From contig DATEGZ010000257.1 of the NCBI GenBank assembly GCA_035279905.1, positions 30,086 through 94,085 on the forward strand: DNA of 64,000 nt. Reading direction: 5' to 3'. Each line of letters opens with the position of its first letter. The first letter of the stretch is position 1. Source of the stretch: Vicinamibacterales bacterium. Lineage in GTDB: Bacteria; Acidobacteriota; Vicinamibacteria; Vicinamibacterales; SCN-69-37. The position numbers and the translations under genes were made by a program. Shown here one piece after another: positions 5,785 to 32,341 of the stretch. The notes beneath the pieces are model-generated. The model saw nothing but the letters and a program-made list of their open reading frames with translations. It had not been told where the DNA came from and searched no databases.

Positions 5785-5862
5785 TTGGGGACAGGTCTCG
5801 AGAAAATGACGCCGAGACCTGTCCCCTTTTAGCCCCGATCTGTGGAAAACAGATCCGTCCCC
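5751..5862. repeat. 112-bp near-perfect palindrome between convergent genes; probable bidirectional terminator or REP/MITE-like element
   Basis: Arms 5751-5800 and 5813-5862 are complementary apart from two T:T mismatches, with a 12-nt loop. Each arm holds its own sub-hairpin GATCTGT-N5-ACAGATC. Confidence 0.85.
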
Positions 5863-6917
5863 TAACAGATCCGCGGCAGCTGCTCGCCGGTGAGCATGTC
5901 GATGATGCGGGAGGCGCCAATCCGGCTGCCCGCGGTGACCAGGCCGGCGGGCGCCTCGGAGACGACGCCAATCACTGCCGCGCCGGCAGTCACGTCGAAG
6001 GCCTGCAGGACGCGCAAGGTGCGGTCGGCGGCGCCGCGCGGGACGATCGCGACGAAGCGGCCCTCGTTGGCGACGTAGAGCGGATCGAAGCCCAGAATCT
6101 CGCACGCCCCGCGGACGTCCTCGCGCACGCGAATCGCGATCTCCTCGATCCGCAGATGACACCGTGACGCCTCCGCGATTTCGACGAGCGACGTCGCCAG
6201 GCCGCCGCGTGTCAGATCGCGCAGGCAATGCACGTCGATGCCGTCGTCGAGAAGCGCGAGCACGGGCGCCGCAAGCGGCGCGCAGTCGCTCTCGATCGCC
6301 GACTCGAACTCGAGCCCCTCGCGCGCGCCCATGACCGCCATGCCGTGCCGCCCGATATCGCCGGACAGTACGATCACGTCCCCGGGCCGCACGCTCGCCG
6401 GCGCCACCACCTGCGAGTGCTCGATCGCCCCCACGCCCGCCGTGTTCACGTACAGTCCATCGGCCTTGCCGCGATCGACGACCTTCGTATCGCCGGTCAC
6501 CAGCAGCACTCCCGCCGCGCTGGCCGCTGCCTTCATCGAGGACACGACGCGTGCGAGCGTCGCCATCTCGAGTCCCTCCTCGAGGATGAAGCCCGCGCTC
6601 AGAAACAACGGCCGCGCCCCGCACATGGCCAGATCGTTGACCGTGCCGTTGACCGCCAGCGTCCCGATGTCGCCTCCGGGAAAGAACATCGGCCGGACGA
6701 CGTAGGAATCGGTCGTGAACGCGAGCGTTGCGCCGGCGATCTGCACCAGCGCGCCGTCATGGCGGGCGCCGAGCGCCGGATTGTCGAACGCGGGCACGAA
6801 CAGCTGCTCGATGAGCTGATGCGTCAGCGCGCCGCCACCCCCATGCGCCAATTGCACGTGCGTGTGCGAGCTGACCGGCACCGGACACGTGATGCCAGTC
6901 GAGAGATCAACGGCCAT
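5862..6917 (-). CDS. hypE: hydrogenase maturation protein HypE
   Basis: Start at [14 protein letters not shown] within ORF 5862..7043. AIR-synthase-like body and the canonical C-terminal ...GEQLPRIC. Confidence 0.9.
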
Positions 6918-8034
6918 GACTGCCCGCCTCTCTTGTTTCCGCGTGCAGGTGCACGCGTCGATATCGGTAATAGGCCGCGCACGCGCCCTCCGACGACACC
7001 ATCGTGGCGCCGAGCGGATGTTCGGGGGTGCACCGCCCGCCAAAGGCCGGACACTCGGGCGGTTTGTTGAGGCCTTGCATGATCAACCCGGCAATGCACT
7101 CCGACGGCTCGTCGATCGTCGTGCTGGCGACGCCAAACCGGCGCTCGGCGTCGAACGCGCGATAGCGATCCTGCAGTCCCAATCCGCTGGCCGGGATCTC
7201 GCCGACGCCGCGCCACTTTCGCGGCACGATGGTGAACACCTCTCGAATGAGCTGCTGCGCCGGAATGTTGCCGCGGTGACGCACCGCCCGCGCGTACTGA
7301 TTCTCGACGTCCGCGCGCCCTTCCTCGAGCTGCTTCACGCACATCAGCACGCCCTGCAGGATGTCGAGCGGCTCGAACCCGGTGACCACGATCGGGACGT
7401 GGTACCTTGCGGCGATCGGCTCGTATTCGGTGACGCCCATGATCGTGCACACGTGGCCCGCGGCGAGAAAGCCCTGCACGCGATTCCGCGACGACGACAG
7501 AATCGCCTCCATGGCCGGCGGCACCAGCACGTGCGACACGAGAATCGAGAAATTCTGAATCCCGCCTTCGGCCGCGTGGAACACGGCCATCGCATTCGCC
7601 GGCGCCGTCGTCTCGAAGCCCACCGCGAAGAAGACGACCTCGCGCCGCGGATTCGTTCGGGCGATCTGCACGGCATCGAGCGGCGAGTACACGATGCGCA
7701 CGTCGCCGCCGCGCGCTTTGACCGATAACAGGTCCGTCGACTTGCCGGGCACCCGCAGCATGTCGCCGAAGGAACAGAAGATCACCCCCGGCCGCGACGC
7801 GATCTCGATCGCCTTCTCGATCAGCTCGAGGGGCGTCACGCACACCGGACAGCCCGGACCGTGCACCAGGGTGATGCCTGGAGGCAGGAGCTCATCCACG
7901 CCGAACTTGACGATGGCGTGGGTCTGGCCGCCGCACACCTCCATCAGCGTCCACGGCCGGGTGGTGACCTGGTGCAGCGCGCGGGCGTAGGCGTGCGCCT
8001 GACCGGCGTCCCGGTACTCGTCGATGTACTTCAC
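6907..8034 (-). CDS. hypD: hydrogenase maturation protein HypD
   Basis: MKYIDEYRD...MEVCGGQTH...GPGCPVCV motifs. Overlaps the hypE start. Confidence 0.92.
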
Positions 8035-8288
8035 GATGACTCTCCGTCCTCGAGCTCGGCCAGGTCGCCGATCTCGCGCAGATACGAGAACACCTTCCCC
8101 GCTTCGTCCTGATCGACGGTGGAGATCGCAAAGCCCACGTGCACGAGCACGTAGTCGCCCGGCTTGGCCTCGGGCGTGTAGCTCAGGTTCACGCGCTTGA
8201 CGATGCCGGCGAAGTTGACCCGGCCGCTGCGCAGCACGGGATCCTCGCCCTCAACGTCGATGATTTGTCCAGGAATCGCCAGACACAT
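8031..8288 (-). CDS. hypC: hydrogenase assembly chaperone HypC
   Basis: 85 aa. The N-terminal MCLAIPGQI is the HypC/HupF signature. Confidence 0.92.
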
Positions 8289-8299
8289 CGTGCACCTCG

Positions 8300-10639
8300 T
8301 CAGCTCGCCCCGGCGCCGGCGAGCGCGGCCAGCGTCTGAGCCGTTCGATCGTCGTCCTTCGCCTTGCGGCGTCCGGGCGGCCCGGTCAGGCCGCGGACGA
8401 GCGCGGCGATTTGTCCCAGCGCGATGCCGCCGTCATTCGTCGGCACCCGTTGATGCCAGCACGGCGAGAATCCTGCCTCGCGAAGCCGTGCGATCGTCCG
8501 CTCGAGCAGGAGTCGATTCTGAAAGCAGCCGCCCGACAGCACGACGCGATCGCGCCCGGCGATCCTGGCGACCGCGACAATCATCCGCGCCAGCGTCTCG
8601 TGAAACCGTGCCGCCATCGTCGCCGCCGGCGCACCGATCGCAAGGTCGTCGAGCAGCGCGCGAATCATCGGCGCCCAGTCCACGGCAAGACACACGCCTG
8701 GAATCAGCTCGAACGGATACGCATCGGCAACGGCCTCGTCCGACACCCACTCCAGCAGCATCGCCGCCTGGCCTTCGAAGGTCGCACGCTGCTTGAGGTC
8801 CAGGAAGGCCGCCACCGCGTCGAAGAGGCGGCCGGCGCTGGTCGTCACCGGCGCGTTCAGGCCGCGGTCCAGCGCCTGGCGCAGCAGCCGGCGTTCGGCG
8901 GGGTCGAACGCTCGAATGGGCGCGACATCGCGATCGAGCGCGCGGGAACCTTCCATCGCGTAGAGCACGCCCAGCGCGGACCGTCGAGGCTCACGCACCG
9001 CGTGTTCGCCGCCGGGCAGCCGGAACGGCCGCAGGCACGCGACGCGATCCCACGTGTCGTCGTCGACGGTGAGGAACTCGCCGCCCCAGATCGTGCCGTC
9101 CGCGCCGTAACCCGTGCCGTCCCACGACACGCCGAGCACGGGGCCGTCGATGTCGTGTTCGGCCAGGCATGACGCGATGTGCGCGAGGTGATGCTGCACC
9201 GTGGCGACGGGCAGCCCGAGCCGGCGGGCGTACTGGCTCGAGAAGTAGTCCGGATGCTGGTCGGCGACGGCGGTCTCGGGCACGGCGTGGAACAACGCGC
9301 CGAGACTCTTCATGACGCGATCGAACGCCTCGATCGACTGCGGCGTCTCGAGATCGCCAAGGTGCTGGCTCACGAAGACGTTGGCGCCTGACGTCACCGC
9401 GACCGCGCTCTTCAGATGCGCGCCGACGGCAACGGCGCGCGGCGCCTCGGCCGCGAGCCGAATCGGCAGCGGCGCGTAGCCGCGCGCGCGGCGCAGGATC
9501 ATCTCGCGTCCGGCCACGACCCGAACGATCGAGTCGTCGACGTGACGCGCGATCGGCCGGTCGTGCACCAGAAACCCGTCAGCGATCCGCGACAATCGGC
9601 GCAGGGCCTCTCGCTCATCGGTGCAGATCGGTTCGTCCGAGAGATTCCCGCTCGTTGCGACCAGCGGTCCGCCGAAATCGGCCGCGATCAAATGGTGCAG
9701 CGGTGTATACGGCAGCATGACGCCGAGCGTCGGGACGCCCGGCGCCACCGCGGACGCCAGACTTCCGCGCACCATCCGCCGCCGAAGCAGCACGATGGGC
9801 GCCTCAGCGGACGCGAGCAGCCGCGCGTCGGCCGGCGAGACGACGCAGTCCCGCCGCACGTCGTCGATCGACGGATACATGGTCGCGAGCGGTTTTTCTT
9901 CGCGATGTTTGCGCTGTCGAAGGCGCCGGACGGCGCACTCCTGCCGTGCGTCGACCATCAGATGAAATCCGCCGATTCCCTTGACGGCCACGATGGAGCC
10001 ACCGCGCAGGGCGTCGACGGCGGCGCGAATGGCCTCGTCGTCCTCGGCCAAAACCGCGCCGCGCCCGCTCCACCAGGCGACCCGGGGGCCGCACACGGGG
10101 CAGGCATTCGGCTGCGCGTGGAACCGGCGGTCCGACGGATCGTGGTACTCGTGCTCGCACGCCTGACACATGACGAAGCCGCGCATGGACGTCCGCGGCC
10201 GGTCGTACGGCAGCGCGTCGATGATGCTGAACCGCGGCCCGCAATGCGTGCAGTTGATGAAGGGATACCGATACCGCCGGTCGTCGGGATCGAAGAGCTC
10301 GCGCCGGCACGCGTCGCACGTCGCGAGGTCCGGCAGCACGATCGCCGTCGGCTCGCCCGCAACTTGACTGTCTCTTATCTCGAACGCCGCCGAGCCGGCC
10401 GGATCCAGCCAGCTCGCCTCGAGGTCGACGATCGTGGCATGCGGCGGCGGCTCGCACACCAGCCGCGCGCGAAATCGATCGATCCGCTCACGCGGTCCCT
10501 CGACCTCGATGACGACACCATCCGGGCCGTTCAGCACCCAGCCGGCCAGGTCGAGCGCCCGCGCCAGCCGGTAGACGAACGGCCTGAACCCGACGCCCTG
10601 GACGGCGCCGCGCACGGACAGCCGCAGCCGCTCACGCAT
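8300..10639 (-). CDS. hypF: carbamoyltransferase HypF
   Basis: 779 aa. Acylphosphatase-like N-terminus (VRGAVQGVGFRPFVY), two CxxC...CxxC zinc-finger pairs, and YrdC plus Kae1-like domains. Confidence 0.92.
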   Translation of the reverse strand: MRERLRLSVRGAVQGVGFRPFVYRLARALDLAGWVLNGPDGVVIEVEGPRERIDRFRARLVCEPPPHATIVDLEASWLDPAGSAAFEIRDSQVAGEPTAIVLPDLATCDACRRELFDPDDRRYRYPFINCTHCGPRFSIIDALPYDRPRTSMRGFVMCQACEHEYHDPSDRRFHAQPNACPVCGPRVAWWSGRGAVLAEDDEAIRAAVDALRGGSIVAVKGIGGFHLMVDARQECAVRRLRQRKHREEKPLATMYPSIDDVRRDCVVSPADARLLASAEAPIVLLRRRMVRGSLASAVAPGVPTLGVMLPYTPLHHLIAADFGGPLVATSGNLSDEPICTDEREALRRLSRIADGFLVHDRPIARHVDDSIVRVVAGREMILRRARGYAPLPIRLAAEAPRAVAVGAHLKSAVAVTSGANVFVSQHLGDLETPQSIEAFDRVMKSLGALFHAVPETAVADQHPDYFSSQYARRLGLPVATVQHHLAHIASCLAEHDIDGPVLGVSWDGTGYGADGTIWGGEFLTVDDDTWDRVACLRPFRLPGGEHAVREPRRSALGVLYAMEGSRALDRDVAPIRAFDPAERRLLRQALDRGLNAPVTTSAGRLFDAVAAFLDLKQRATFEGQAAMLLEWVSDEAVADAYPFELIPGVCLAVDWAPMIRALLDDLAIGAPAATMAARFHETLARMIVAVARIAGRDRVVLSGGCFQNRLLLERTIARLREAGFSPCWHQRVPTNDGGIALGQIAALVRGLTGPPGRRKAKDDDRTAQTLAALAGAGAS

Positions 10640-11294
10640 GGCTCCTCAACACCGAGTGCTCGAGCCACTGGCACCACTCGCCGAGGCCCGCCCCGCTGGT
10701 ACACGACGTCTCGAAGACTTTCAGCTTCGGGTTGATCTGCCACGCGTGGCGGCGAATGGCGCGGATATCGGCGCCGACAAACGGCAGGAGATCCGTCTTG
10801 TTGATGACGAGCACCGAGGCGTTGCGGAACATCGCGGGATACTTCAGCGGCTTGTCGTCGCCTTCGGTCGTGCTGAGCACGACGACCTTCATCGCTTCGC
10901 CCAGGTCGTAGTTCGCCGGACACACGAGGTTGCCGACGTTCTCGATGAGGAGGAGATCGAGCGCGTCCAGGTCGAACTGGTCGAGCGCCTGCAGCACGAG
11001 ATTCGCTTCGAGATGGCAGCCGCCGTTGGTCACGATCTGGACGACGGGCACGCCATACGCCGCGACGCGGCGTGCATCGAGATCGGTCTGCACGTCGCCC
11101 TCGATCACGCCGACGTGGAGGGACCCCTTCAACCGCTCGAGCGTCCGCTCGAGCAGCGTCGTCTTGCCGGCGCCGGGCGAGCTGACGATGTTCAACACGC
11201 ATACGCCGTGCCTGGCAAAGCGCGTGCGGTTGACCGCCGCGATCGCGTCGTTCTTCTCGAGCACCTTGCGCTCGACCGTCACAATTTCGCTCAC
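10632..11294 (-). CDS. hypB: hydrogenase nickel incorporation GTPase HypB
   Basis: P-loop SSPGAGKTTLL and the G3E-family CH motif (GGCHLEA). GTG start overlaps the hypA stop (GTGA). Confidence 0.9.
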   Translation of the reverse strand: MSEIVTVERKVLEKNDAIAAVNRTRFARHGVCVLNIVSSPGAGKTTLLERTLERLKGSLHVGVIEGDVQTDLDARRVAAYGVPVVQIVTNGGCHLEANLVLQALDQFDLDALDLLLIENVGNLVCPANYDLGEAMKVVVLSTTEGDDKPLKYPAMFRNASVLVINKTDLLPFVGADIRAIRRHAWQINPKLKVFETSCTSGAGLGEWCQWLEHSVLRSHA

Positions 11295-11545
11295 GGCGTT
11301 TCCTCCTCGAGCTCGATGTCCGCGACCTGCAGCTCCTGCCCCGCTACGCGATCGATCGCGAGCGACGCGCGGTCATACGGCGTCTCCGACGTCACCGCGC
11401 TGAAGCACCACGCCAGCGAGTCGGGCTCGACACCCGCGAGCTCGCCGACGCGAACGCGCACCGACCGGACCAGCGGCGCCCGATCGACCGGCACGTACTG
11501 TCGGACGATGTCGAAGATGCTGTTCGCGAGGCTCAGCTCATGCAC
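11291..11545 (-). CDS. hypA: HypA-like nickel metallochaperone, short form lacking the zinc-ribbon module
   Basis: 84 aa beginning with MHELSL (the MHE nickel-binding N-terminus). No CxxC...CxxC pair is present. The position immediately upstream of hypB is canonical. Confidence 0.7.
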   Translation of the reverse strand: MHELSLANSIFDIVRQYVPVDRAPLVRSVRVRVGELAGVEPDSLAWCFSAVTSETPYDRASLAIDRVAGQELQVADIELEEETP

Positions 11546-11554
11546 GTCGTGCTC

Positions 11555-11953
11555 TCACTTCCGCCCGGCGAGCGACAGCACGTAGGCCGTCAGGTCCCAC
11601 GCGTCCTGCTCGCTCAAGCTCTTCCAGCTCGGCATCGCGGTGCCGCGCCGCCCTTCCCGAATCGCGAAGAACACGTGGCGCGGTGTCGCGGCCGCGTGCC
11701 ACCCGGCGTCCCTGAAATCACGCGGCGGTGGCTGGAGTCCCTCGCGCTGGAGGCCGTAGCCGTCACCCCGCACCCCGTGGCAGAGCGTGCAGTACTTCTG
11801 GAACAGCAGCGCTCCGCGCTCGGCCGCCTCCGGCGACGCCAGTGTCGTTGGCACCGCGATCGCGCGGTACTCGCGCGGGAGATCGCCGTCGGCGCTATGA
11901 CATGCCGACAAGACGAGCGACATCCAGCCCGCGATCAGGAGCGGCCGCTTCAT
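11555..11953 (-). CDS. monohaem class I c-type cytochrome, lipoprotein
   Basis: Start ATG 11953 within ORF 11555..12253. MKRPLLIAGWMSLVLSAC is a lipobox, CTLCH is the haem-binding site, and GTAMPSW carries the distal Met. Confidence 0.8.
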   Translation of the reverse strand: MKRPLLIAGWMSLVLSACHSADGDLPREYRAIAVPTTLASPEAAERGALLFQKYCTLCHGVRGDGYGLQREGLQPPPRDFRDAGWHAAATPRHVFFAIREGRRGTAMPSWKSLSEQDAWDLTAYVLSLAGRK

Positions 11954-12446
11954 GCCCCACCTTCGGACGACACCGGAACCCGATCGCCGCAGCCTCGTCC
12001 ACGACACGGTCCACCAGATCGTCGAGGGCGGCCGCGACGCGCGGCGACAGGCCGACGCCGAGCTCGATCGATTCGGGCACGAGGCCGAGGAGCACGACCC
12101 GGGTGGGATAGCGATCGCGCCAACGCGCGCCGTCGAGCAGGTCCGACACGCCGACCTGATGCGGAGACAGGCGCGTCGCCACTGCCGGCGCCACGTCGTC
12201 GCCGTCGAGCCGCACGAATGTCCCCGCAGGTCCATCGCCGCGAATCGCGTCAACGAGGATCACGGCCTCCGCCTCCTCCACATACGGAAGCAAGGCGAGA
12301 CCGAGCGTTCCGCCGTCCAGGACGTGCACGTCCGGCGGAACGATGAAGTGGTCGCGCAAGCGAACGACCGCCGCCGCTCCCAGGCCGTCGTCGCCGAGCA
12401 GGACGTTGCCCAGGCCCAGCACAAGGAGTGGCACGCGGTTACTCAT
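11895..12446 (-). CDS. hydrogenase maturation endopeptidase (HyaD/HybD family)
   Basis: MSNRVPLLVLGLGNVLLGDDGLG...ILVDA motifs. Its 3' end overlaps the cytochrome c start by 59 nt. Confidence 0.85.
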   Translation of the reverse strand: MSNRVPLLVLGLGNVLLGDDGLGAAAVVRLRDHFIVPPDVHVLDGGTLGLALLPYVEEAEAVILVDAIRGDGPAGTFVRLDGDDVAPAVATRLSPHQVGVSDLLDGARWRDRYPTRVVLLGLVPESIELGVGLSPRVAAALDDLVDRVVDEAAAIGFRCRPKVGHEAAAPDRGLDVARLVGMS

Positions 12447-13167
12447 CGACCTGACCTTCGCGGTTGATGAAGCGGTAGCCGGAGTACTCGAGATCTTCGG
12501 GCGGGACGAACTTGTAGCCGGAGAAGATCGATTCCATCGTCCCGTTCGCTTCGATGATCGACATCAACACGCCGCTGTAGACGTGATGGGCGGCGAAGCC
12601 CAGCAGCAGCCACATCACGACGTGATGAATCCAGCGCACCATCTGGAATCCGCCAAGCATCCCCGCGAACGACGCGAACCACCGGAACGGCGAGCCGACG
12701 TCGGCGTAGGGCGCGTGGAGCGCCAAGCCGGTGAGAATCGCGAGGAAATACAACCCGAACACCAGGACGTAGGTCAGGCCGGCCACCGGGTTGTGGCCGA
12801 CGAAGCCCGGCGGCTTGCGCAACGCAAACAGGTAGAACTTCAGCGTCGGCCAGAGCCCGCGGAAGCGCGACGCGTGGACGGGCAGGAACTTGTCCCACCG
12901 CGCGTACTTGTTGCCCGTGAACATCCAGATGATGCGCACGGCGACGGCGCCGATGAAGACGAAGGCCGTGTAGAGATGGATGGTGCGAATCCAGCCCATG
13001 ACGAACGACGTGCGCGCCTCTCCCGAAACCGTCATGAACGGATGCCCGATGTACAGGCCCGTCACCGACAGGACGACGATCGCGCCTGCGATGAGCCAGT
13101 GCGTGACGCGGACGGGAATCTGCCACACGTAGGTGCAGACCACCCGTTCCGGCAGTGCGGTCGTCAT
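12439..13167 (-). CDS. Ni/Fe-hydrogenase b-type cytochrome subunit
   Basis: Start ATG 13167 (MTTALPERVVCTYVWQIPVRVTHWL), overlapping the large-subunit stop (ATGA). Four TM helices with conserved His. Confidence 0.85.
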   Translation of the reverse strand: MTTALPERVVCTYVWQIPVRVTHWLIAGAIVVLSVTGLYIGHPFMTVSGEARTSFVMGWIRTIHLYTAFVFIGAVAVRIIWMFTGNKYARWDKFLPVHASRFRGLWPTLKFYLFALRKPPGFVGHNPVAGLTYVLVFGLYFLAILTGLALHAPYADVGSPFRWFASFAGMLGGFQMVRWIHHVVMWLLLGFAAHHVYSGVLMSIIEANGTMESIFSGYKFVPPEDLEYSGYRFINREGQVDE

Positions 13168-14870
13168 ACCACCCTCACGGCAGCCAGCTCGCGGCGCTTC
13201 GGATCGACGACGTGCACGCCGCAAGCCATGCAGGGATCGAACGAATGGATCGTGCGCAGGATTTCGATCGGCCGCTTCGGATCGGCGACCGGCGTGTTGA
13301 CGAGCGCTTCTTCGTACGGCCCGCGGTGGCCTTGCGCGTCGCGCGGACCGGCATTCCACGTGCTCGGCACGACGCACTGGTAGTTGCTGATGATCCCGTT
13401 CTTGATGCGGACCCAATGGCCGAGCGCCCCGCGCGGCGCCTCATGGAAACCCGCGCCCGTGGCCTCGGCGGGCCAGCTCGACGGATCCCACTTCGAGTTG
13501 TCGTGAATGCGGAGCTCGCCGCTCGCCATGTTGGCCGCGAGCGCGTCGACCCAGTCCTCGATCTTCTCGGCCAGCACCTGCGTTTCGATCCCGCGCGCCG
13601 CCACCCGGCCCAGCGTGGAGAACAACGCCTCGGGCCCAACGCCGAGCTTCTTCAGCACGGCGTCGACGAGGTCCTTCACTCGCGAATGGCCCGAGGCATA
13701 CGACACGAGCATGCGCGACAGCGGGCCCACCTCCATCGGCTGGTCGTCGTACCGCGGCGACTTGAGCCACGAGTACTTCTTCTCGACTTCGAGGTGTTCG
13801 TACGGCGGCTTGGGCCCGGTGTAATGGGGCGCGGTTTCGCCCTCGAGCGGATGGAGCGCCGCGCCATCGCCTTTCTGATAGTCGTACCAGGAGTGCGACA
13901 CGTATTCGGTGACCTTCGCAGGATCGAAGGGCTCGACCTTCGCGAGATTGCGCTGACGAATCACGCCGGCCGGCAGAAAGAGCCTGGGCTTGGCGGAGTC
14001 GTCGTCCGGATACTCGCCGTAGACGAGATAGTTGCCGACGCCCTGACCGTGACTCGCCCAGTCCTTGTAAAAGCTCGCGACGGCCAGCAAATCCGGCACG
14101 TACACGCGCGTCACGAAGTCGCGCGCCTTCGCGATGAGCTCCTTGCAGGCGGCGATCGTGCCCGCATTCAGCGCGGCCTGACTGTTCGGATCGACCGGCG
14201 TGGCCATGCCGCCCACGAGGAAGCTCTGCAGGTGCGGGTTCTTGCCGCCGAGCACGGCGTGCATCTTGATGAACTCGCGCTGCCAGTCGAGCGCCTCGAG
14301 GTAGTGCGCGACGGCCATCAGGTTCGCTTCAGGCGGCAGCTTGTAGGCGGGGTGTCCCCAGTACGCGTTTGCGAAGGGGCCAAGCTGTCCGCGATCCACG
14401 AAACCTTTGACACGATCGCGCACACCCCCGAAGTACGTGGCGCTCGACAGCGGCCAGTCCGAGATCGACTGCGCCAGGGCAGACGTCTTCGCTGGATCCG
14501 CTGAGAGCGCCGACACGATGTCCACCCAGTCGAGCGCGTGCAGGTGGTAGAAGTGGACGACATGATCCTGGACGCACTGCGAGGCGATGATCAGATTGCG
14601 CAGCAGCCGGGCGTTGGGCGGCGGGGCCGCGCCAATCGCGTTTTCCACGGCGCGAATCGACGTGATCGCGTGCACCGTCGTGCACACGCCGCAGATTCGT
14701 TGCGCGAACGCCCACGCGTCCCGTGGATCGCGGCCCTTGAGAATCAGCTCGATCCCCCGGAACATCGTCGACGAGGACCACGCGTCCTTGACGAGGCCGC
14801 CGTCGACTTCGGCCTCGATCCGGAGATGGCCTTCGATCCGCGTGACCGGATCGACCACGATGCGGCTCAT
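13164..14870 (-). CDS. [NiFe] hydrogenase large subunit (group 1, membrane-bound uptake type)
   Basis: VDPVTRIEGH..., RICGVCTTVH (L1) and DPCMACGVH (L2). A 15-aa C-terminal extension matches protease processing. Confidence 0.95.
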   Translation of the reverse strand: MSRIVVDPVTRIEGHLRIEAEVDGGLVKDAWSSSTMFRGIELILKGRDPRDAWAFAQRICGVCTTVHAITSIRAVENAIGAAPPPNARLLRNLIIASQCVQDHVVHFYHLHALDWVDIVSALSADPAKTSALAQSISDWPLSSATYFGGVRDRVKGFVDRGQLGPFANAYWGHPAYKLPPEANLMAVAHYLEALDWQREFIKMHAVLGGKNPHLQSFLVGGMATPVDPNSQAALNAGTIAACKELIAKARDFVTRVYVPDLLAVASFYKDWASHGQGVGNYLVYGEYPDDDSAKPRLFLPAGVIRQRNLAKVEPFDPAKVTEYVSHSWYDYQKGDGAALHPLEGETAPHYTGPKPPYEHLEVEKKYSWLKSPRYDDQPMEVGPLSRMLVSYASGHSRVKDLVDAVLKKLGVGPEALFSTLGRVAARGIETQVLAEKIEDWVDALAANMASGELRIHDNSKWDPSSWPAEATGAGFHEAPRGALGHWVRIKNGIISNYQCVVPSTWNAGPRDAQGHRGPYEEALVNTPVADPKRPIEILRTIHSFDPCMACGVHVVDPKRRELAAVRVV

Positions 14871-15979
14871 GACGCCTCCCCTTTTTGATCCGTCCTGGGC
14901 GCGTCACCCTTGCGGCCCGCGTGTTTGATGATCTGAATCAGGCCGTGGCCGGCGAACGTCGCCGCGACGCCGACGACGGCCGCCGCGCCGATCGTGTCCA
15001 CGCTGGACTGGATGCCGAACCCTGGGATGCCGGTGAGGTGCTGATAGAACGGCGTCATGCGATCCCAGAAGGCCGGCTCCGCACAGCCGATGCACGGATG
15101 GCCGCAGCCGATCGGCCAGTTCGTGCCGCCGTTCCAGCGCACGTTCGGACAGTTCTGGAAGCTGACCGGGCCCTTGCAGCCCATCTTGTAGAGGCAATAG
15201 CCGGCGCGATGACCCGCATCGCCCCAGGCTTCGACGTACTGCCCGGCGTCGAAGTGCGCGCGCCGCTCGCAGTTGTCGTGAATGGCCTTGCCATACGCAA
15301 AGAGCGGCCGCCGGTACTGATCGAGCGCCGGCCACTTCTTGAACGTCAAGTAGTGCACGATGAGCGCGGTCAGGTTCTCGACGTTCGCGGGACACGCCGG
15401 CAGGTTGATGAGGGTCTTGAGGCCCGGGACGGCGTCTGCGACGGCCAGCGCCCCGGTAGGGTTGGGCGCCGCAGCCGGGAGGCCGCCAAAGGCGGCGCAC
15501 GTGCCGATTGCAATCGTCGCAGCCGCGCCGCCACAGACCTCGCGTGCGATGTCGAGAGCTGAGCGCCCGCCAATTGTGCAATAGGCGCCGTCGGCGCCAG
15601 TCGGGATCGAGCCCTCCACCACCGCGATGTACTGTCCGGCGCGTTCTTTCACCGCCCGGGCGAGATTCTCTTCAGCCTGCGACCCGGCCGCCGCCATGAT
15701 CGTCTCGTGGTAGTCGACCGAGAGCACGTCGAGCACGACCTCGGCAGCGGTCGGACGCGAGGCACGCAAGAACGACTCGGTGTTCCCGGCGCAATCCTGG
15801 AATTCCAGCCACACGAGCACCGGCTTCTCGGCTTTGGCCACTGCACGCGCGATCTGCGCCGCCACGGCATCCGGGAGCGAGAGCGCCGCGGCCATCGTCG
15901 TGCAGAACGCCATGAACTCGCGGCGAGACACGCCGTGCCGTGCGAGCTCCGTCTTGACCCAAGAACGTTGCCCGCTCAT
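14867..15979 (-). CDS. [NiFe] hydrogenase small subunit, Tat-exported, C-terminal membrane anchor
   Basis: Start ATG 15979 within ORF 14867..16450, preceded by GGGAGG. Twin-arginine signal SRREFMAFCTTMAAAL. FeS motifs GTCAAFGG, ACPAN, IHDNC and CKGPVSFQNCP...GHPCIGC. Confidence 0.95.
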   Translation of the reverse strand: MSGQRSWVKTELARHGVSRREFMAFCTTMAAALSLPDAVAAQIARAVAKAEKPVLVWLEFQDCAGNTESFLRASRPTAAEVVLDVLSVDYHETIMAAAGSQAEENLARAVKERAGQYIAVVEGSIPTGADGAYCTIGGRSALDIAREVCGGAAATIAIGTCAAFGGLPAAAPNPTGALAVADAVPGLKTLINLPACPANVENLTALIVHYLTFKKWPALDQYRRPLFAYGKAIHDNCERRAHFDAGQYVEAWGDAGHRAGYCLYKMGCKGPVSFQNCPNVRWNGGTNWPIGCGHPCIGCAEPAFWDRMTPFYQHLTGIPGFGIQSSVDTIGAAAVVGVAATFAGHGLIQIIKHAGRKGDAPRTDQKGEAS

Positions 15980-16173: not shown

Positions 16174-17238
16174 TCAGTGCTCGCCGAAGCGGCGAATCTT
16201 CCAGACGCCTGCCGAGACGACCCAGGACGCCACGAAGAGCGCGAAGACCGTGTAGCCGGTGGCCACCGAGTTCCAGTGCCGTACGGCTTCCCAGAACCGT
16301 CCCTGAAGACCGGGAAGGCGGCCCGCGGCGATCGACAGGAGCTCGATCGTACCGACGGAGAGCGCGACGACCACCGATAGACCAGTCACGGTCAGGTTGT
16401 AGAAGATCTTGCGCATCGGATTGGCGAATGCCCAGCCGTAGGCTCCGCACATGACGATGCCGTCCGCGGTGTCGAGGAGCGTCATCCCGGCCGCGAACAC
16501 GATCGGCAGGGTGAGGACGGCGGCGAGCGGCAGCGACTGGGACGCCGCCAGGCCTGCCACGGTCAGAAGCGCGATCTCGGTGGCCGTGTCGAAGCCCAGC
16601 CCGAACAGAAACCCGACCAGGTACATCTGGCTCGGGTGCTTGACGAGCCTGAACAAGCCGCCGAACCAGCGCGAGATCAGCCCTCCCTGGAGCAGGACGG
16701 CCTCGGCGGCTTCGGCGTCGTACTCTCCGCGGCGCATCCGGCGGAACACGCGGTAGACATCGACCATGACGAGGAGATTGAGGCCGCCAATGAGATAGAG
16801 GAACAGGCCGGAGATCGTGGTACCGACGAGCGATCCGATTTCATGCAGGCGCGGCAGCTCGCGGGCGATCGTTTGCGTGGTGAGCGCCAGGGTGAGCGTC
16901 ATCAGCAGCACAACGCTCGAGTGGCCCAGCGAGAAGTACAGGCCCACGCCGAGCGGACGCCGGTTTTCGTTCATCAGCCGCCGCGCGGTGTTGTCGATCG
17001 CCGCGATGTGGTCGGCATCGAACGCGTGCCGCAGTCCAAACGCATAGGCCAGGCCCGCCAGTCCGAGCAGCGTCGGGTGCGCCGCGCCGCCAAACCACCA
17101 CACGCCGCCCCAGCCAACGACATGCAACACCACGATCGTGAGCACGAGCGGCAGGATTTCGCGCGCGAGAGTCCGAGCCGGACGGCCAGCGGTCATCTTC
17201 CCCGCTATCCTTTCACATTTCGTGCCGCGCGCGAGCAC
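16174..17238 (-). CDS. NiCoT-family high-affinity nickel/cobalt transporter (HoxN/HupN/NixA type)
   Basis: Signature GLRHAFDADHIAAIDN, 8-TM layout. The start could instead be ATG 17196 (MTAGRPARTL). Confidence 0.85.
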   Translation of the reverse strand: MLARGTKCERIAGKMTAGRPARTLAREILPLVLTIVVLHVVGWGGVWWFGGAAHPTLLGLAGLAYAFGLRHAFDADHIAAIDNTARRLMNENRRPLGVGLYFSLGHSSVVLLMTLTLALTTQTIARELPRLHEIGSLVGTTISGLFLYLIGGLNLLVMVDVYRVFRRMRRGEYDAEAAEAVLLQGGLISRWFGGLFRLVKHPSQMYLVGFLFGLGFDTATEIALLTVAGLAASQSLPLAAVLTLPIVFAAGMTLLDTADGIVMCGAYGWAFANPMRKIFYNLTVTGLSVVVALSVGTIELLSIAAGRLPGLQGRFWEAVRHWNSVATGYTVFALFVASWVVSAGVWKIRRFGEH

Positions 17239-18820: not shown

Positions 18821-20401
18821 CTATTTCTTGGCCGCCAGCCACGCCGCGATGGCGTGGATCTCCTCGGTTGTCAGACGGCCCGCGAAGGCCGGCATCTCGG
18901 CGTCGGGCTTCACGTCCACGGGATTGTTGATCCGCCGCTCGATCAACGCCAAGTCGTACTTGCTGCCGACGTTCGAGAGGTCGGGGCCTTCGGTGCCGCC
19001 GACGCCGTCGATCAGATGACATCCGAGGCACGTGCGATTGACGACGACGTTGAGGTGGGCCGCGGCGGCGTCGATCGTGGGCGGAGCTTCAGCGCGCAGC
19101 CTCGCCAGCGCGGCGACGATCGCGGCCGTATCGCGCTGATTCGTCTCGGGCGGCTCGCGCAAACCGGGCGCGATCACCTCGGGATCGACGACGTGCGCCG
19201 CGAGCCAGTCGGCCGGACGGCTGATGTGGCCGGCTTCAATCGGCGCGGCGAGGCCATCCGCCTTGTGGCATCGCGTGCAGCGATTCTCGGTGGCCATGAG
19301 CGACGCACCGGCCAGCTCGCGCACGTTCCACCCTGTGGTGCTCGCTCGTGGCTTGTCGCGCGCGCCGAGCAGCGTCAGCGTAGCGATCAAGGCCAGCCCG
19401 CCGCTGAACATGGACAGCAGCATGCGCCGGCCGCGCAACTCGCGGGACGAAGCGCGATCGAGCCACGGCAACAGCGCGAGGAGCGTCATCGCGACGCCCG
19501 GAATCACGATCGCGCCGACCACTTCCAGTCGCCCAGGAAAGTACTTCAGCAACTGGAAGAGCCCGAGGAAGTACCATTCCGGCCGCGGCACGTAGTCGCT
19601 CGCCGTCGGATCGGCGGGCGGCTCGAGCGCCGGGGCGCCCTTCCACGCGAGGACCGCGAGCAGCGTCCCGACGGCGATCGCCATCAACAGATCGCGTCCG
19701 GCCTGGGACGGAAAGAACGGGAACGGCTTGCCCGCGCGCTCGCGCACCGGACCGGAAATACCCTGCCGCCGCATCAGGAAGAGATGCAGGACGACCAGCG
19801 CGACCAACGCCGGCGGCAGCACGAGCACGTGAATCGCGTACCATCGCGTGAGCGTCAACGCGCCGATGTCCGGACCGCCTCGCAGCAGCGCGGCCACGGT
19901 CTCCCCTGCCAACGGCGTCAGCTTCGAGATGTTGATCGCCACCACCGTCGCCCAGTACGAGCGTTGATCCCATGGCAGCAGGTAACCCGTCAGCCCGAAC
20001 GCCAGAATCAGGTGAAGCAGGATGAGCCCGACAATCCAGTTGAGCTCGCGCGGCTTGCGATAGCTCCCGAAGAACACGACGCGCGCCAGATGCACCACGG
20101 CTGCGACGACCACCACGCTCGCGCCCCAATGATGCAACCCTCGCAGGAACGCCCCGCCAGGGATCATGGTCATGACGAAACGGACACTCTCCCACGCGTG
20201 GTCCGGCGTCGGCGCGTAGAACAACGCGAGCGCGATGCCCGTGACGATCTGCACGGTCAGCCCGAACAGCAGGACGCTCCCGAGCGTGAACCACCATCCG
20301 GTGCCCGGCGGAAGCGGCTCATCGAGCAGGTGATGACGCGCTGTGCGGAAGGCCGTACGGTCGTCGAGCCAGGCGAGGAGATCCCGGAGCCGCGCGTTCA
20401 C
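18821..20401 (-). CDS. cytochrome b (bc/b6f type) fused to a C-terminal dihaem c-type cytochrome
   Basis: GTG 20401 overlaps the Rieske stop (GTGA). Cytochrome b N-terminal motifs ([11 protein letters not shown]..., RGLHHWGAS). Two CxxCH sites (CTRCH, CLGCH) in the last ~150 aa. Confidence 0.8.
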
Positions 20402-20868
20402 AGCTCGACCTCGAGGTCGGACGTCTTCGGATTGACGCGGACGTTGAGCCGCTCGAGCGGCCGCGGCGGCGGGCCCGCGACCACGCGGCCTTCGCGATCG
20501 TAGACGCCGCCGTGGCACGGACACTTGAACTGCTGCGCGCCATCGTCCCAGTGGACGCGGCAGCCGAGGTGCTGGCAGACCGCCGACAGCGCGCGGTAGC
20601 CGTCGCCGTCACGGTCGATGAAGATCACCGACTGTTTGCGCGTTTCGTACCACCCGTCGGCGTGGCGCTCGGCGACCACCGCGCTCGTCGGCGCGTTCGG
20701 AACGAGATCGATAGTGGAAATCGCGCGGCGCCATCTTTTGGCCGGCCCCGACGCCCGCGGCGTGGCGACCAGGCCGACGAGACCGGCCAAGCCGGCCGTG
20801 ATGAACCCCACACCGGCGATCACGATGCGGGCGAGCGCCGAACGACGACTATCATCAGGCGTAGTCAC
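20398..20868 (-). CDS. Rieske [2Fe-2S] protein
   Basis: [10 protein letters not shown] ... CPCHGGVYD boxes and an N-terminal TM/Tat-like anchor. Confidence 0.88.
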
Positions 20869-30001: not shown

Positions 30002-32341
30002 CTACGAGTCGGTTCGCTGCAGGATCGACATCGGATCGAGATGAATCGCGCGCCACACGGGGCCGATCGACGCTGACACGCCGACGACAGCGATCGCGCT
30101 GGACGCCTCGAGCCAGAATCGCCAGTCGGTGCCGGCCACGAGAAACGCCTCGGGCCAGACGGCCTTGGTGATCGCCAGCGTCACGATCACGCCGGCTCCG
30201 GCTCCCGCCGTCACGAGCACGGTATCCCGGACGATCGCCAGCCAGGCCATCGACGAGGGACTCGCACCGAGGGCGAGGCGAATCGCGAAGCTTCGCCGCC
30301 GGCGCGCGATCGATTGACTCATCGACGCATAGATCCCCGTCGTCACAAGAATGAGCGACACAGTGGCGAGCGCGCCGAACAGCGCGACAAGGGTCCCGGC
30401 CCCTTCACGCTGTCGGCCAACGATGTCCGCCAGAGTCGAGTTCTCGTCCACGCTCAACGCGCCAGCGCTCGCCTGATCGACAGCCCGACGAACCTCGACG
30501 TCCGTCGGCGCAAGCCCGGGCTGGCGGCGAAACACGAGATAGGCACTCTCGCCCAGCGTGCGCTCGAGTGCTGGAACATAGAGGTCCGCGGCTTGCAGAC
30601 TGGCGATCTTCCCGCTCCGGCCGACGTCTGACACGACGCCCGCGATCTCGAATCGATAGGCGGACGGGCCGCGCTTGACCGAGACCTGCCGGCCGACGGC
30701 GCCGGTGTTCCAGCACTTTCGCGAGAGCGTCGCACTCGCGACCGCAGTATCTCGGTCAACAATCGCTCCGAAACCGCTCTCGACGTTCAGTCCGAGCACC
30801 GAGAAGTATTCGGGCGTGACGGCCCGCACCACTGCGTGACAGCTGTCCGAGCCATCTGCGGCGTCGGTCGTGACGATGGCGGTCGGGGCGGCCGGCAGCG
30901 GACGCGTGTCGCTCAACGCCGCGGTACTGACGCCCGGAAGGTCCCGAATGGCGTCGCGCGCGCGGGCAGCCGTGCTGGTCTCGACGGCCGCCCCGGCGGC
31001 GGACACGAGGCGCACCACACCGATCTGCTCGAGCGAACCGTGCGGCGCGGTGCCGGCGACCTCCTCGATCACCGAATGAAAGAGCAAAGTGACCACGACG
31101 AGCACGACGGAGAGCGCCACCTGGATGAGCACGAGCAGGTCGGCCACGCCGTACGCGCCGGGACGCCAGATTGTCCGGTTCCGTGCCGCTGGCAGAATCG
31201 GCGCGAGATCTGTGCGCGCGGCGAGAATCGCTGGAACGAGTCCCGTCAGCGCCACCGACACCGCAACCGTGGCGAGGCCAAATGCGATGGCTCCCGTCTC
31301 GAGCACGATCGAAGCCGCCGTTCCCGCGCTCAGCGGCACGATCATCGCCCTGAGAATTCGCACACCAGCAAACGACAGCGGCAGCGCCAGGGCGCCCGCG
31401 GAGACGGCCACCAGCGCGGATTCGATAACGGCCTCGCGAGCCATCCGCCATGGCCCAGCGCCGAGGCTCACCCGGATCGCGAGCTCGCGTTCGCGACGGA
31501 GCGCGCCTGCGACCAGCACGGCTGACGCGTTGCCGCACGCGACGAGGAGGACGAGCAGCGCCGGTCCGAGTAATCCGATGACCGCTTGCGCGCCTCGGCG
31601 GACGGATGGATCTGTCAGCGGCACCGCGACCACGCGCTGCTCCACCGGCCCCTCGGCAAAGCGCGCGCTCACGCGGACCCACGTCTCGGGCCCGTCCAAT
31701 CTGCCGAACAGGTCGACGCCCGCGCCGGTCGCGGTCTGTGGAGCGCGTACCCACACGTCCGTATCGCGGTCGCCGAACCAGAAGCCATCAGGCATGACGC
31801 CCACAACATCGTACGCGTCGCCCTCGACTCGGATCGGTCGGCCGATGATCGCGGTGTCAGCGGCGCAGGCGGTGCGCCAGAACGCAGCGCTCAACAGCGC
31901 CTCAGACCCGTGCGAATCTCGCGTCAGGGCGCGGCCGAGCTGCGGCGCCACCCTGATGACGTCACTGAAGTTCGGCGAGACCCAACGCACGGTCGAGGAT
32001 CTCGCCTCGGCGACACAGCCGTTGATGTCGACGGGAGCAGGCCGCCGTGTGCTCCTCGTGACGACCAGTTGCCCAGCCGCGCGATCGATGACGCCCTGGA
32101 TCTCGGCCGGCCGGAACGGACGACGGCCCATGGGCGCGGATCGGTCAACGGCGTACAGACGGGCCACTCGCTCCGGCTCAGGAACGGGCGCCACATCGTC
32201 GGCCACGGCTCTGAAGGCGGTGTAGAGGGTAACGGCTGCGGCGAGACCGAGGCCGAGCGCCAGAACGGGTGCGGCGAATTGTCCTGGGGCGGCTGCGGTG
32301 GTCCGCGCCGCCCGCTTTACGTCGACCCACACAGACTTCAT
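30002..32341 (-). CDS. ADOP-family duplicated orphan permease (MacB/FtsX-like, TIGR03434-like)
   Basis: 779 aa with two MacB-periplasmic-domain plus FtsX four-helix units. No adjacent ABC ATPase. Confidence 0.8.
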   Translation of the reverse strand: MKSVWVDVKRAARTTAAAPGQFAAPVLALGLGLAAAVTLYTAFRAVADDVAPVPEPERVARLYAVDRSAPMGRRPFRPAEIQGVIDRAAGQLVVTRSTRRPAPVDINGCVAEARSSTVRWVSPNFSDVIRVAPQLGRALTRDSHGSEALLSAAFWRTACAADTAIIGRPIRVEGDAYDVVGVMPDGFWFGDRDTDVWVRAPQTATGAGVDLFGRLDGPETWVRVSARFAEGPVEQRVVAVPLTDPSVRRGAQAVIGLLGPALLVLLVACGNASAVLVAGALRRERELAIRVSLGAGPWRMAREAVIESALVAVSAGALALPLSFAGVRILRAMIVPLSAGTAASIVLETGAIAFGLATVAVSVALTGLVPAILAARTDLAPILPAARNRTIWRPGAYGVADLLVLIQVALSVVLVVVTLLFHSVIEEVAGTAPHGSLEQIGVVRLVSAAGAAVETSTAARARDAIRDLPGVSTAALSDTRPLPAAPTAIVTTDAADGSDSCHAVVRAVTPEYFSVLGLNVESGFGAIVDRDTAVASATLSRKCWNTGAVGRQVSVKRGPSAYRFEIAGVVSDVGRSGKIASLQAADLYVPALERTLGESAYLVFRRQPGLAPTDVEVRRAVDQASAGALSVDENSTLADIVGRQREGAGTLVALFGALATVSLILVTTGIYASMSQSIARRRRSFAIRLALGASPSSMAWLAIVRDTVLVTAGAGAGVIVTLAITKAVWPEAFLVAGTDWRFWLEASSAIAVVGVSASIGPVWRAIHLDPMSILQRTDS

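Follow-up and report, generated by a model that had tools for sequence, protein, structure and literature searches.

An asparagine at the second proximal-cluster ligand position of a Vicinamibacterales [NiFe]-hydrogenase small subunit as a character of its clade

The hydrogenase locus on contig DATEGZ010000257.1 of a Vicinamibacterales bacterium (Acidobacteriota; GenBank assembly GCA_035279905.1) raises the question of what an asparagine is doing where a [NiFe]-hydrogenase small subunit, HupS, is expected to hold a cysteine ligand of its proximal iron-sulfur cluster, and whether this residue is peculiar to one gene or belongs to a class of enzymes. The window, meaning the whole 64,000-nucleotide stretch that we analyzed (positions 30,086 to 94,085 of the contig), had been the subject of a preliminary description made from the letters alone, in which the exchange was first noticed. 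Our findings indicate that Asn66 is an inherited and selected character of its clade, a known hallmark of group 1f, and not a peculiarity of this gene. Taken jointly, the placement of the enzyme in the clade named group 1f in HydDB and the literature, and Asn or Asp as the norm of that clade, are very probable. The best full explanation, with class and a proposal for the cluster included, is a cytochrome-b-anchored respiratory H2-uptake [NiFe]-hydrogenase that is exported by the Tat (twin-arginine translocation) pathway, and to this complete reading we give a probability of roughly 0.5.

Asparagine 66 at a proximal-cluster ligand position

The features of the small subunit are as follows.

14867..15979 including the stop codon, minus strand: hupS (hyaS), [NiFe]-hydrogenase small subunit of 370 amino acids, recognized by TIGR00391 and by phmmer alignment to 1H2A_S
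15782..15793, minus strand: C63-A64-G65-N66, the proximal 'CxxC' position with Asn for the second Cys, from the DNA read and gapless alignments
15497..15499, minus strand: Cys161 (GTCAAFGG), third proximal ligand, from alignment to 1H2A_S and the MBH chains
15392..15394, minus strand: Cys196 (ACPAN), fourth proximal ligand, from phmmer alignment to solved small subunits
15911..15928, minus strand: twin-arginine (Tat) motif S-R-R-E-F-M, residues 18-23, from the translation, aligned with SRRDFL of the 1H2A_S precursor

Read from the DNA, the codons gat tgc gcc ggg aac acc gag tcg give D62-C63-A64-G65-N66-T-E-S, with AAC for Asn66 at 15782-15784, in the context WLEFQD-C63-A-G-N66-TESFLRA. The register of this motif was checked by phmmer against approximately 40 solved small subunits. 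The segment FQDCAGNTESFLRA of HupS pairs without gaps with NAECTGCSESVLRA (naECTGCSESvLRA) of 1H2A_S, and the R. eutropha MBH chains, ECT(G/C)CSESFIRS, give the same gap-free register with FQDCAGNTESFLRA. In a MAFFT alignment of 178 sequences, CAGN shares its four columns with CTGC and CTCC. A shift that would bring a cysteine onto the ligand position, a possibility raised in the preliminary description, was looked for in the phmmer and MAFFT alignments and rejected, the motif being gapless in both, and the central claim of that description, that Asn replaces the second Cys of the proximal CxxC, holds at the level of the DNA and of both alignments.

Eleven of the twelve residues of the canonical ligand set (four Cys proximal, three Cys medial, His and three Cys distal) are present in HupS by alignment to solved enzymes, the second proximal Cys being replaced by Asn66. 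The medial ligands are C277, C296 and C299, and the distal ligands are H234, C237, C262 and C268. Both sites that carry the supernumerary cysteines of O2-tolerant enzymes are Gly in HupS (G65 and G166); the engineered MBH chains have Gly or Cys in the column of G166, which we take to be that of Cys120, a cysteine in wild-type MBH. The further statements of the preliminary description, namely that the first Cys is kept, that the supernumerary position is Gly and that the remaining ligands are conventional, were borne out by this comparison.

The protein is otherwise an ordinary member of its family. HupS exceeds the TIGR00391 threshold for group 1 small subunits (417.9 bits against a cutoff of 179.5, residues 10-353), its residues 7-314 match 1H2A_S, the small subunit of D. 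vulgaris Miyazaki, with E = 4e-96 in phmmer, and its homologues carry PF01058 and PF14720. The Tat signal characteristic of a group 1 small subunit is present, and the C-terminus is a hydrophobic anchor (IGAAAVVGVAATFAGHGLIQII). Translation starts at an ATG at 15979 with a GGGAGG Shine-Dalgarno sequence 7 nucleotides upstream, and homologues of 370-372 amino acids span 100% of the open reading frame (ORF). A longer, GTG-initiated ORF was rejected as the gene because these homologues cover the ATG-initiated frame from end to end.

Distribution among relatives and class of the enzyme

Among the 120 nearest clusters at 90% identity (74-93% identical), position 66 is Asn in 119 and Asp in one, and N66 is invariant in an alignment of 27 sequences whose mean column identity is 75%. 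A census of genomes, which covered the 80 closest loci with one genome per species according to GTDB, gave a readable motif in 78, with Asn in 50, Asp in 26 and Cys in 2 (Asn or Asp in 76 of 78); one of the Asp loci holds two copies. The codons used at this position by the relatives are AAC (43), AAT (7), GAT (14) and GAC (13); Asn and Asp are one nucleotide apart (AAC/GAC, AAT/GAT), and Cys is two changes from either. Because N66 is invariant in the 27-sequence alignment, because Asn is found in 119 of the 120 clusters and because both AAC and AAT are used, the residue is, on this comparative evidence, under selection and neither chance nor error.

The 80 closest loci come from Acidobacteriota (Vicinamibacterales, Thermoanaerobaculia, Bryobacteraceae) and from Gemmatimonadota, Geobacteraceae/Desulfuromonadales, Nitrospirota, Syntrophales, Roseiflexus, Chloroflexaceae, Anaerolineae and Acidimicrobiia. 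Within this set Asn is commonest in Acidobacteriota, Gemmatimonadota and Chloroflexota, with the Roseiflexus motif, WLEFQDCAGNTESFLRA, identical to that of HupS, and Asp is commonest in Geobacterales, Syntrophales and other anaerobes, the Geobacteraceae having mostly Asp. This distribution suggests a link with oxygen exposure, though it is confounded with phylogeny. Farther out, the nearest cluster representatives at 50% identity read CAGN, CAGD, CAAD, CTGD, CTGN, CGGN and even CAGE, whereas CTGC and CTCC forms start at approximately 56% identity and dominate beyond, with a few Asn, Asp or Glu forms down to approximately 39%; the distant representatives that carry a name are a few Anaerolineales, Bacillota and Clostridia.

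Two variants of the motif were noted in passing. Ten relatives (L010, L011, L014-L016, L025-L027, L050 and L056) read C-C-G-N, with an extra Cys directly after the first proximal ligand, which is a different position from that of the supernumerary Cys in the O2-tolerant CTCC enzymes. In addition, L061, L071 and protein P0125, from Anaerolineales/Chloroflexota, form a small subclade within the Asn/Asp clade that has reverted to Cys (CAGC) and that would serve as a natural control for comparative biochemistry.

The same picture is obtained from a neighbor-joining (NJ) tree of small subunits, computed from the core alignment without the four motif columns and rooted at the midpoint. The clade of the window HupS holds 35 Asn and 1 Asp, and its sister holds 27 Asp, 12 Asn and 3 Cys, which gives a joint 78-member clade with 47 Asn, 28 Asp and 3 Cys (Asn or Asp in 75 of 78). 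Cys-type sequences, including D. vulgaris (DvMF) and the CTCC O2-tolerant types, lie outside this clade, and a few small clades with Asn, Asp or Glu are nested among them. As read from this tree, which we use for no more than that, Asn or Asp at position 66 is a clade character with rare reversions.

Other positions that mark the Asn/Asp type were sought by comparing 100 Asn/Asp-type with 57 Cys-type sequences. A strict filter for specificity-determining positions between these two sets found none, and a Jensen-Shannon ranking put positions 198, 252, 149, 62 and 64 at the head of the list; since the Asn/Asp type amounts essentially to a single clade, they cannot be told apart from marks of shared ancestry. 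Position 198 is the most discriminating column after position 66. Here Ala198 of the window (C196-P-A198-N; 15386-15388, minus strand) stands in a column with Ala, Met or Val in Asn/Asp-type sequences and Pro (CPPN) in Cys-type sequences. Cys149 (REVC149GG; 15533-15535, minus strand), where the D. vulgaris enzyme has Leu, is by topology probably far from the proximal cluster and may be just a clade marker. A further extra cysteine, Cys292 (WPIGC292GHPC296IGC299; 15104-15106, minus strand), lies four residues before the medial ligand Cys296. Close Acidobacteriota relatives have it without exception, and so do 34 of the 100 Asn/Asp-type sequences, though in both groups Ala is the residue met most often in this column; in the Cys type, Cys does not rank among the top four.

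The assignment to group 1f draws on relatedness, on the ligand and on the operon. After Acidobacteriota the nearest named genomes are those of Geobacteraceae, Roseiflexus/Chloroflexaceae and Nitrospirota, and the large subunit, HupL, is 63-71% identical to that of Geobacter/Geobacteraceae, Roseiflexus and Nitrospirota loci, with 55-69% for HupS. The exchange of the proximal Cys for Asn or Asp, a trait of group 1f, is present in the window as N66, at the same second proximal ligand as in Geobacter sulfurreducens Hya, Roseiflexus, Frankia synton-3 and Acidobacterium ailaaui. Group 1f operons comprise the small subunit, the large subunit, a b-type cytochrome and an endopeptidase, an organization found in HydDB and in G. 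sulfurreducens hya. This order is present in the window and kept across the related loci, and the Roseiflexus relatives combine the same WLEFQDCAGNTESFLRA motif with the same hupS-hupL-cytochrome b-protease operon. Unlike other group 1f members, the window enzyme falls in an Acidobacteriota/Gemmatimonadota subclade (72-90% identical within) with an operon cytochrome c and the extra Cys292, and Geobacter-type members mostly have Asp where the window has Asn.

This ligand has been described before. Yonemoto et al. (2014) listed natural changes at 'Proximal, 2', with Asp for Cys in G. metallireducens and Asn for Cys in N. punctiforme, and showed that a standard enzyme is active when the corresponding change, C81D or C81N, is engineered into it (PMC4070099). 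Mohammadi et al. (2017) reported that Asn replaces one of the four proximal cysteines in HupS of mesophilic methanotrophs, and that in group 1f, as found in Roseiflexus, Geobacter and Frankia, Asn or Asp takes the place of this Cys (PMC5364354). Group 1f has also been recorded in Frankia synton-3 (PMC11879354), and Chloroflexales strains encode group 1f and/or 2a enzymes (PMC6776052). The HydDB paper holds no discussion of cluster ligands. What looked like an odd ligand thus marks a class of hydrogenase that is widespread and has a name already, and which is abundant in soil Acidobacteriota and is encoded by organisms, such as Acidobacterium ailaaui, that are linked to aerobic H2 oxidation down to sub-atmospheric levels (PMC6776052, PMC7174314).

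Other classes fit less well. The solved group 1 enzymes, namely A. vinosum HynSL (1e, 3MYR), R. eutropha MBH and E. coli Hyd-1 (1d) and the D. vulgaris enzyme (1b), are the best structure matches (E = 4e-96 to 1e-88 for the small subunit). With standard group 1 the window enzyme shares the Tat signal, the C-terminal anchor, a cytochrome b partner (as in 1d) and 11 of 12 cluster ligands; standard and O2-tolerant group 1 enzymes have Cys where it has Asn66. O2-tolerant group 1d enzymes, with their six-Cys [4Fe-3S] cluster, have two supernumerary cysteines around the proximal cluster (C-T-C-C and G-S-C-A-S-W-G-C); the corresponding residues of the window are G65 and G166. In group 1e, isp1 and isp2 lie between the small- and large-subunit genes and no cytochrome b is known; in the window, hupS and hupL overlap by 4 nucleotides and a TIGR02125 cytochrome b follows hupL. 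Enzymes of group 2a are cytosolic and not known to carry a Tat signal. This group, which comprises Mycobacterium smegmatis Huc (PDB 7UUR/7UTD) and cyanobacterial HupSL, has an N-terminus of the GGACSGNTMSFLNA type and a distal site without His, in contrast to the Tat signal and His234 of the window. Cyanobacterial HupS, like Huc, has C-x-G-N at its proximal site. Against Huc the window scores E = 1e-31, with only C-x-G-N in common, compared with 4e-96 to a group 1 structure. Huc also lacks a cytochrome b subunit, menaquinone being reduced directly on a HucM stalk, and its distal site is [3Fe-4S] (PMC10017518), unlike the canonical His/three-Cys distal ligands and Tat signal that the window keeps.

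The small and large subunits of the window match group 1h/5 with E = 1e-25 and E = 1e-43, respectively. Group 1h is not known to have a cytochrome b subunit. The R. eutropha AH enzyme of group 1h/5 (PDB 5AA5) resembles HupS in having a non-Cys residue, there Asp, at the fourth proximal residue (PMC5364354). Members of that group are cytoplasmic, with no Tat signal and no C-terminal anchor, and carry the L1 motif TSRICGICGDNH and the L2 motif SFDPCLPCGVH (PMC5364354), whereas the window enzyme has both Tat signal and anchor and reads RICGVCTTVH and SFDPCMACGVH.

Several points weigh against the class assignment. The group 1f label was reached by proxies, that is, nearest named taxa, operon structure and description in the literature. 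HupL shares 59% identity with its group 1e counterpart from A. vinosum, compared with 63-71% for the Geobacter, Roseiflexus and Nitrospirota loci, a modest margin. Finally, the NJ tree is without support values, and its midpoint root puts a further 12-member Asn/Asp clade on the opposite side.

Proposed working and chemistry of the proximal cluster

To judge from its family membership, the enzyme would have a respiratory role, in which periplasmic oxidation of H2 feeds a three-cluster relay, cytochrome b and finally quinone. H2 would be split at the NiFe site of HupL, and the electrons would travel over the three clusters of HupS (proximal, medial, distal) to cytochrome b and on to quinone. 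With three thiolates only, the proximal site would hold a cluster other than the standard four-Cys [4Fe-4S]. Very plausibly, the change to Asn66 tunes the redox potential or the O2 behavior of the proximal cluster.

What this cluster might be can be approached through Huc, in which all three clusters, including the proximal one, are [3Fe-4S], as established by Grinter et al. (2023) from a 1.52 Å cryo-electron microscopy structure and electron paramagnetic resonance (PMC10017518). According to the same work, [3Fe-4S] clusters lie approximately 250 mV above [4Fe-4S] clusters and tune Huc for high-potential, O2-insensitive H2 oxidation (PMC10017518). The small subunit HucS (7UUR_D) reads GGA-C11-S-G-N14-TMSF in register with C63-A-G-N66, residue 55 of HupS being aligned to residue 3 of Huc. 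We therefore slightly favor, with odds a little short of even, a Huc-like, three-Cys [3Fe-4S] proximal cluster in the Asn form over a [4Fe-4S] cluster with an oxygen or nitrogen ligand, because Huc shares C-x-G-N and has a [3Fe-4S] proximal cluster. Asn66 would pack or hydrogen-bond against this cluster, which would lift the proximal potential by approximately 0.2-0.3 V and bias the enzyme to oxidizing H2 at high potential and with O2 present.

There are points that count against the three-iron cluster. Position 66 is almost strictly Asn or Asp, and swaps with Asp, which in group 1h is a proven [4Fe-4S] ligand; such a restriction fits an oxygen ligand to a fourth iron better than an empty site. 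Huc itself is only a distant relative (E = 1e-31), and its distal site is also non-canonical. An AlphaFold2 model of HupS was too poor to use, at a mean predicted local distance difference test score of 46.7, with the motif region below 50, its input of 27 sequences, all at least 74% identical, being too shallow.

The strongest alternative, which we hold to be a serious though tentative candidate, keeps the same enzyme and clade and proposes a complete [4Fe-4S] cluster whose fourth iron would be bound by the side-chain oxygen or the amide nitrogen of Asn66, by analogy with the three-Cys/one-Asp site of group 1h and with the Asp form of Geobacter-type 1f enzymes. Such a hard ligand would shift the potential and stabilize the cluster against oxidative damage. 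In support, Asn or Asp is found in 76 of 78 genomes and in 100 of 103 sequences of the NJ tree (the 78-member clade with the further Asn/Asp clades), and the one-nucleotide interchange of Asn and Asp argues that the carbonyl or carboxylate oxygen matters. For group 1h, Asp is reported to complete the ligands of the proximal cluster as the fourth, 3Cys/1Asp (PMC5364354). Huc, however, is the sole high-resolution structure with C-x-G-N, and it shows a [3Fe-4S] proximal cluster. To our knowledge, ligation of Fe-S clusters by Asn is otherwise very rare, which also counts against this cluster. The C-x-G-N common to Huc and group 1f provides a concrete hypothesis for a high operating potential, in the form of a choice between [3Fe-4S] and oxygen-ligated [4Fe-4S], for which the natural Asn, Asp and Cys variants of one clade offer a ready-made mutational series.

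An extension of the three-iron proposal, which we consider unlikely, would give the Asn-type 1f enzymes, that of the window included, a 3Fe/3Fe/4Fe relay within a membrane-bound hydrogenase that is otherwise classical, Tat-exported and cytochrome-b-linked, and make Asn/Asp a natural one-nucleotide switch between 3Fe and 4Fe clusters. If true, this switch, with Asn mainly in aerobic Acidobacteriota, Gemmatimonadota and Chloroflexota and Asp mainly in anaerobic Geobacterales and Syntrophales, would determine the potential of the enzyme, its H2 affinity and its behavior towards O2.

It is improbable that the missing thiolate comes from another residue, either Cys149 or, in the CCGN variants, Cys64, which would leave the cluster effectively four-Cys and Asn66 a bystander. 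This idea draws on the presence of Cys149 in 83 of the 100 Asn/Asp-type sequences, where the three commonest residues among the 57 Cys-type sequences are Ala, Ser and Val, and on the CCGN motif of 10 of the 80 genome relatives. However, residue 64 of the window is Ala and not Cys, and Cys149, 12 residues ahead of Cys161, ends the helix preceding the strand to the cluster and would be approximately 20 Å away given a flavodoxin-like topology. This idea would also leave unexplained why position 66 is so strictly confined to Asn or Asp.

The reading of the preliminary description, that of an unrecognized solution which falls outside the non-Cys classes known so far and is special to this enzyme with Tat signal and cytochrome b, fares slightly worse still. 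It is right in that the substitution is real and conserved and that no biochemical characterization of the class, or description of a purified group 1f enzyme, was found in the literature searched, in which the subclass is known genomically and physiologically. Against it, the same residue and operon occur in dozens of species of at least five phyla, and the substitution had been described in 2014 and 2017 for Geobacter and group 1f. The supposition that non-Cys ligands are confined to classes without Tat signal and cytochrome b is contradicted by Asn or Asp in 76 of 78 genomes and by the same Tat/cytochrome b operon in every part of the clade where the contig reaches far enough, and the expectation that Asn would not be the norm of a known subclass gave way when Asn or Asp proved to be normal in group 1f (PMC5364354, PMC4070099). 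Of the suggested unusual redox-tuning or O2-tolerance solution, the tuning role survives as very plausible, while 'unusual' does not, the substitution being already described for group 1f. Last, an artefact (sequencing error, misalignment or decaying pseudogene) can practically be discarded, as we found no point in its support and observed an intact ORF with a ribosome-binding site, a complete operon, gapless alignments, an invariant N66 and the use of both codons.

Operon and neighborhood

On the minus strand the genes run in the order nicO-hupS-hupL-cytb-hupD-cytc-hypABFCDE.

16174..17238, minus strand: NicO/HoxN-type high-affinity nickel transporter, upstream of hupS (PF03824, 310 bits)
13164..14870, minus strand: hupL (hyaL), [NiFe] large subunit of 568 amino acids (NCBIfam large-subunit models, E = 1e-184 to 1e-187, below equivalog cutoffs)
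12439..13167, minus strand: Ni/Fe-hydrogenase b-type cytochrome of 242 amino acids, membrane anchor and quinone reductase (TIGR02125 equivalog, 156.8 bits against a cutoff of 121.5)
11895..12446, minus strand: hupD (hyaD), large-subunit maturation endopeptidase (TIGR00072, 140.4 bits against a cutoff of 47.45)
11555..11953, minus strand: monohaem c-type cytochrome of 132 amino acids with CTLCH and a signal or lipoprotein-like N-terminus (Pfam Cytochrome_CBB3, Cytochrom_C)
11291-11545, minus strand: hypA, recognized by sequence inspection and matched in related loci
10632-11294, minus strand: hypB, recognized by sequence inspection and matched in related loci
8300-10639, minus strand: hypF, recognized by sequence inspection
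8031-8288, minus strand: hypC, recognized by sequence inspection
6907-8034, minus strand: hypD (Pfam HypD)
about 5862-7043, minus strand: hypE (Pfam AIRS/AIRS_C)

The large subunit carries the L1 motif RICGVCTTVH, the L2 motif SFDPCMACGVH and a C-terminal extension for proteolytic maturation, and its best solved relative is 3MYR_B (59% identity). The ATG of hupL overlaps the stop codon of hupS by 4 nucleotides. By tblastn over the 80 related loci, hupL, the cytochrome b gene and the protease gene lie directly downstream of hupS in essentially every locus that is long enough. The hyp maturation block as a whole occupies 5862..11545 on the minus strand.

Only the Acidobacteriota/Gemmatimonadota subclade (L001-L029) keeps the cytochrome c gene between hupD and hypA; in the Geobacter, Roseiflexus and Nitrospirota loci none was found there, except for a weak 26% match in L059. 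This cytochrome may provide an extra periplasmic electron outlet for the subclade.

A scan of the window (1-64000) with Rfam returned no family at the gathering threshold. Approximately 3 kb upstream of the hydrogenase cluster, at 18821-20868 on the minus strand, the translation suggests a putative Rieske-type protein (20398-20868, CxH...CPCH) and, at 18821-20524 on the same strand, a 567-amino-acid protein resembling a cytochrome b with a c-type haem domain fused to its C-terminus.

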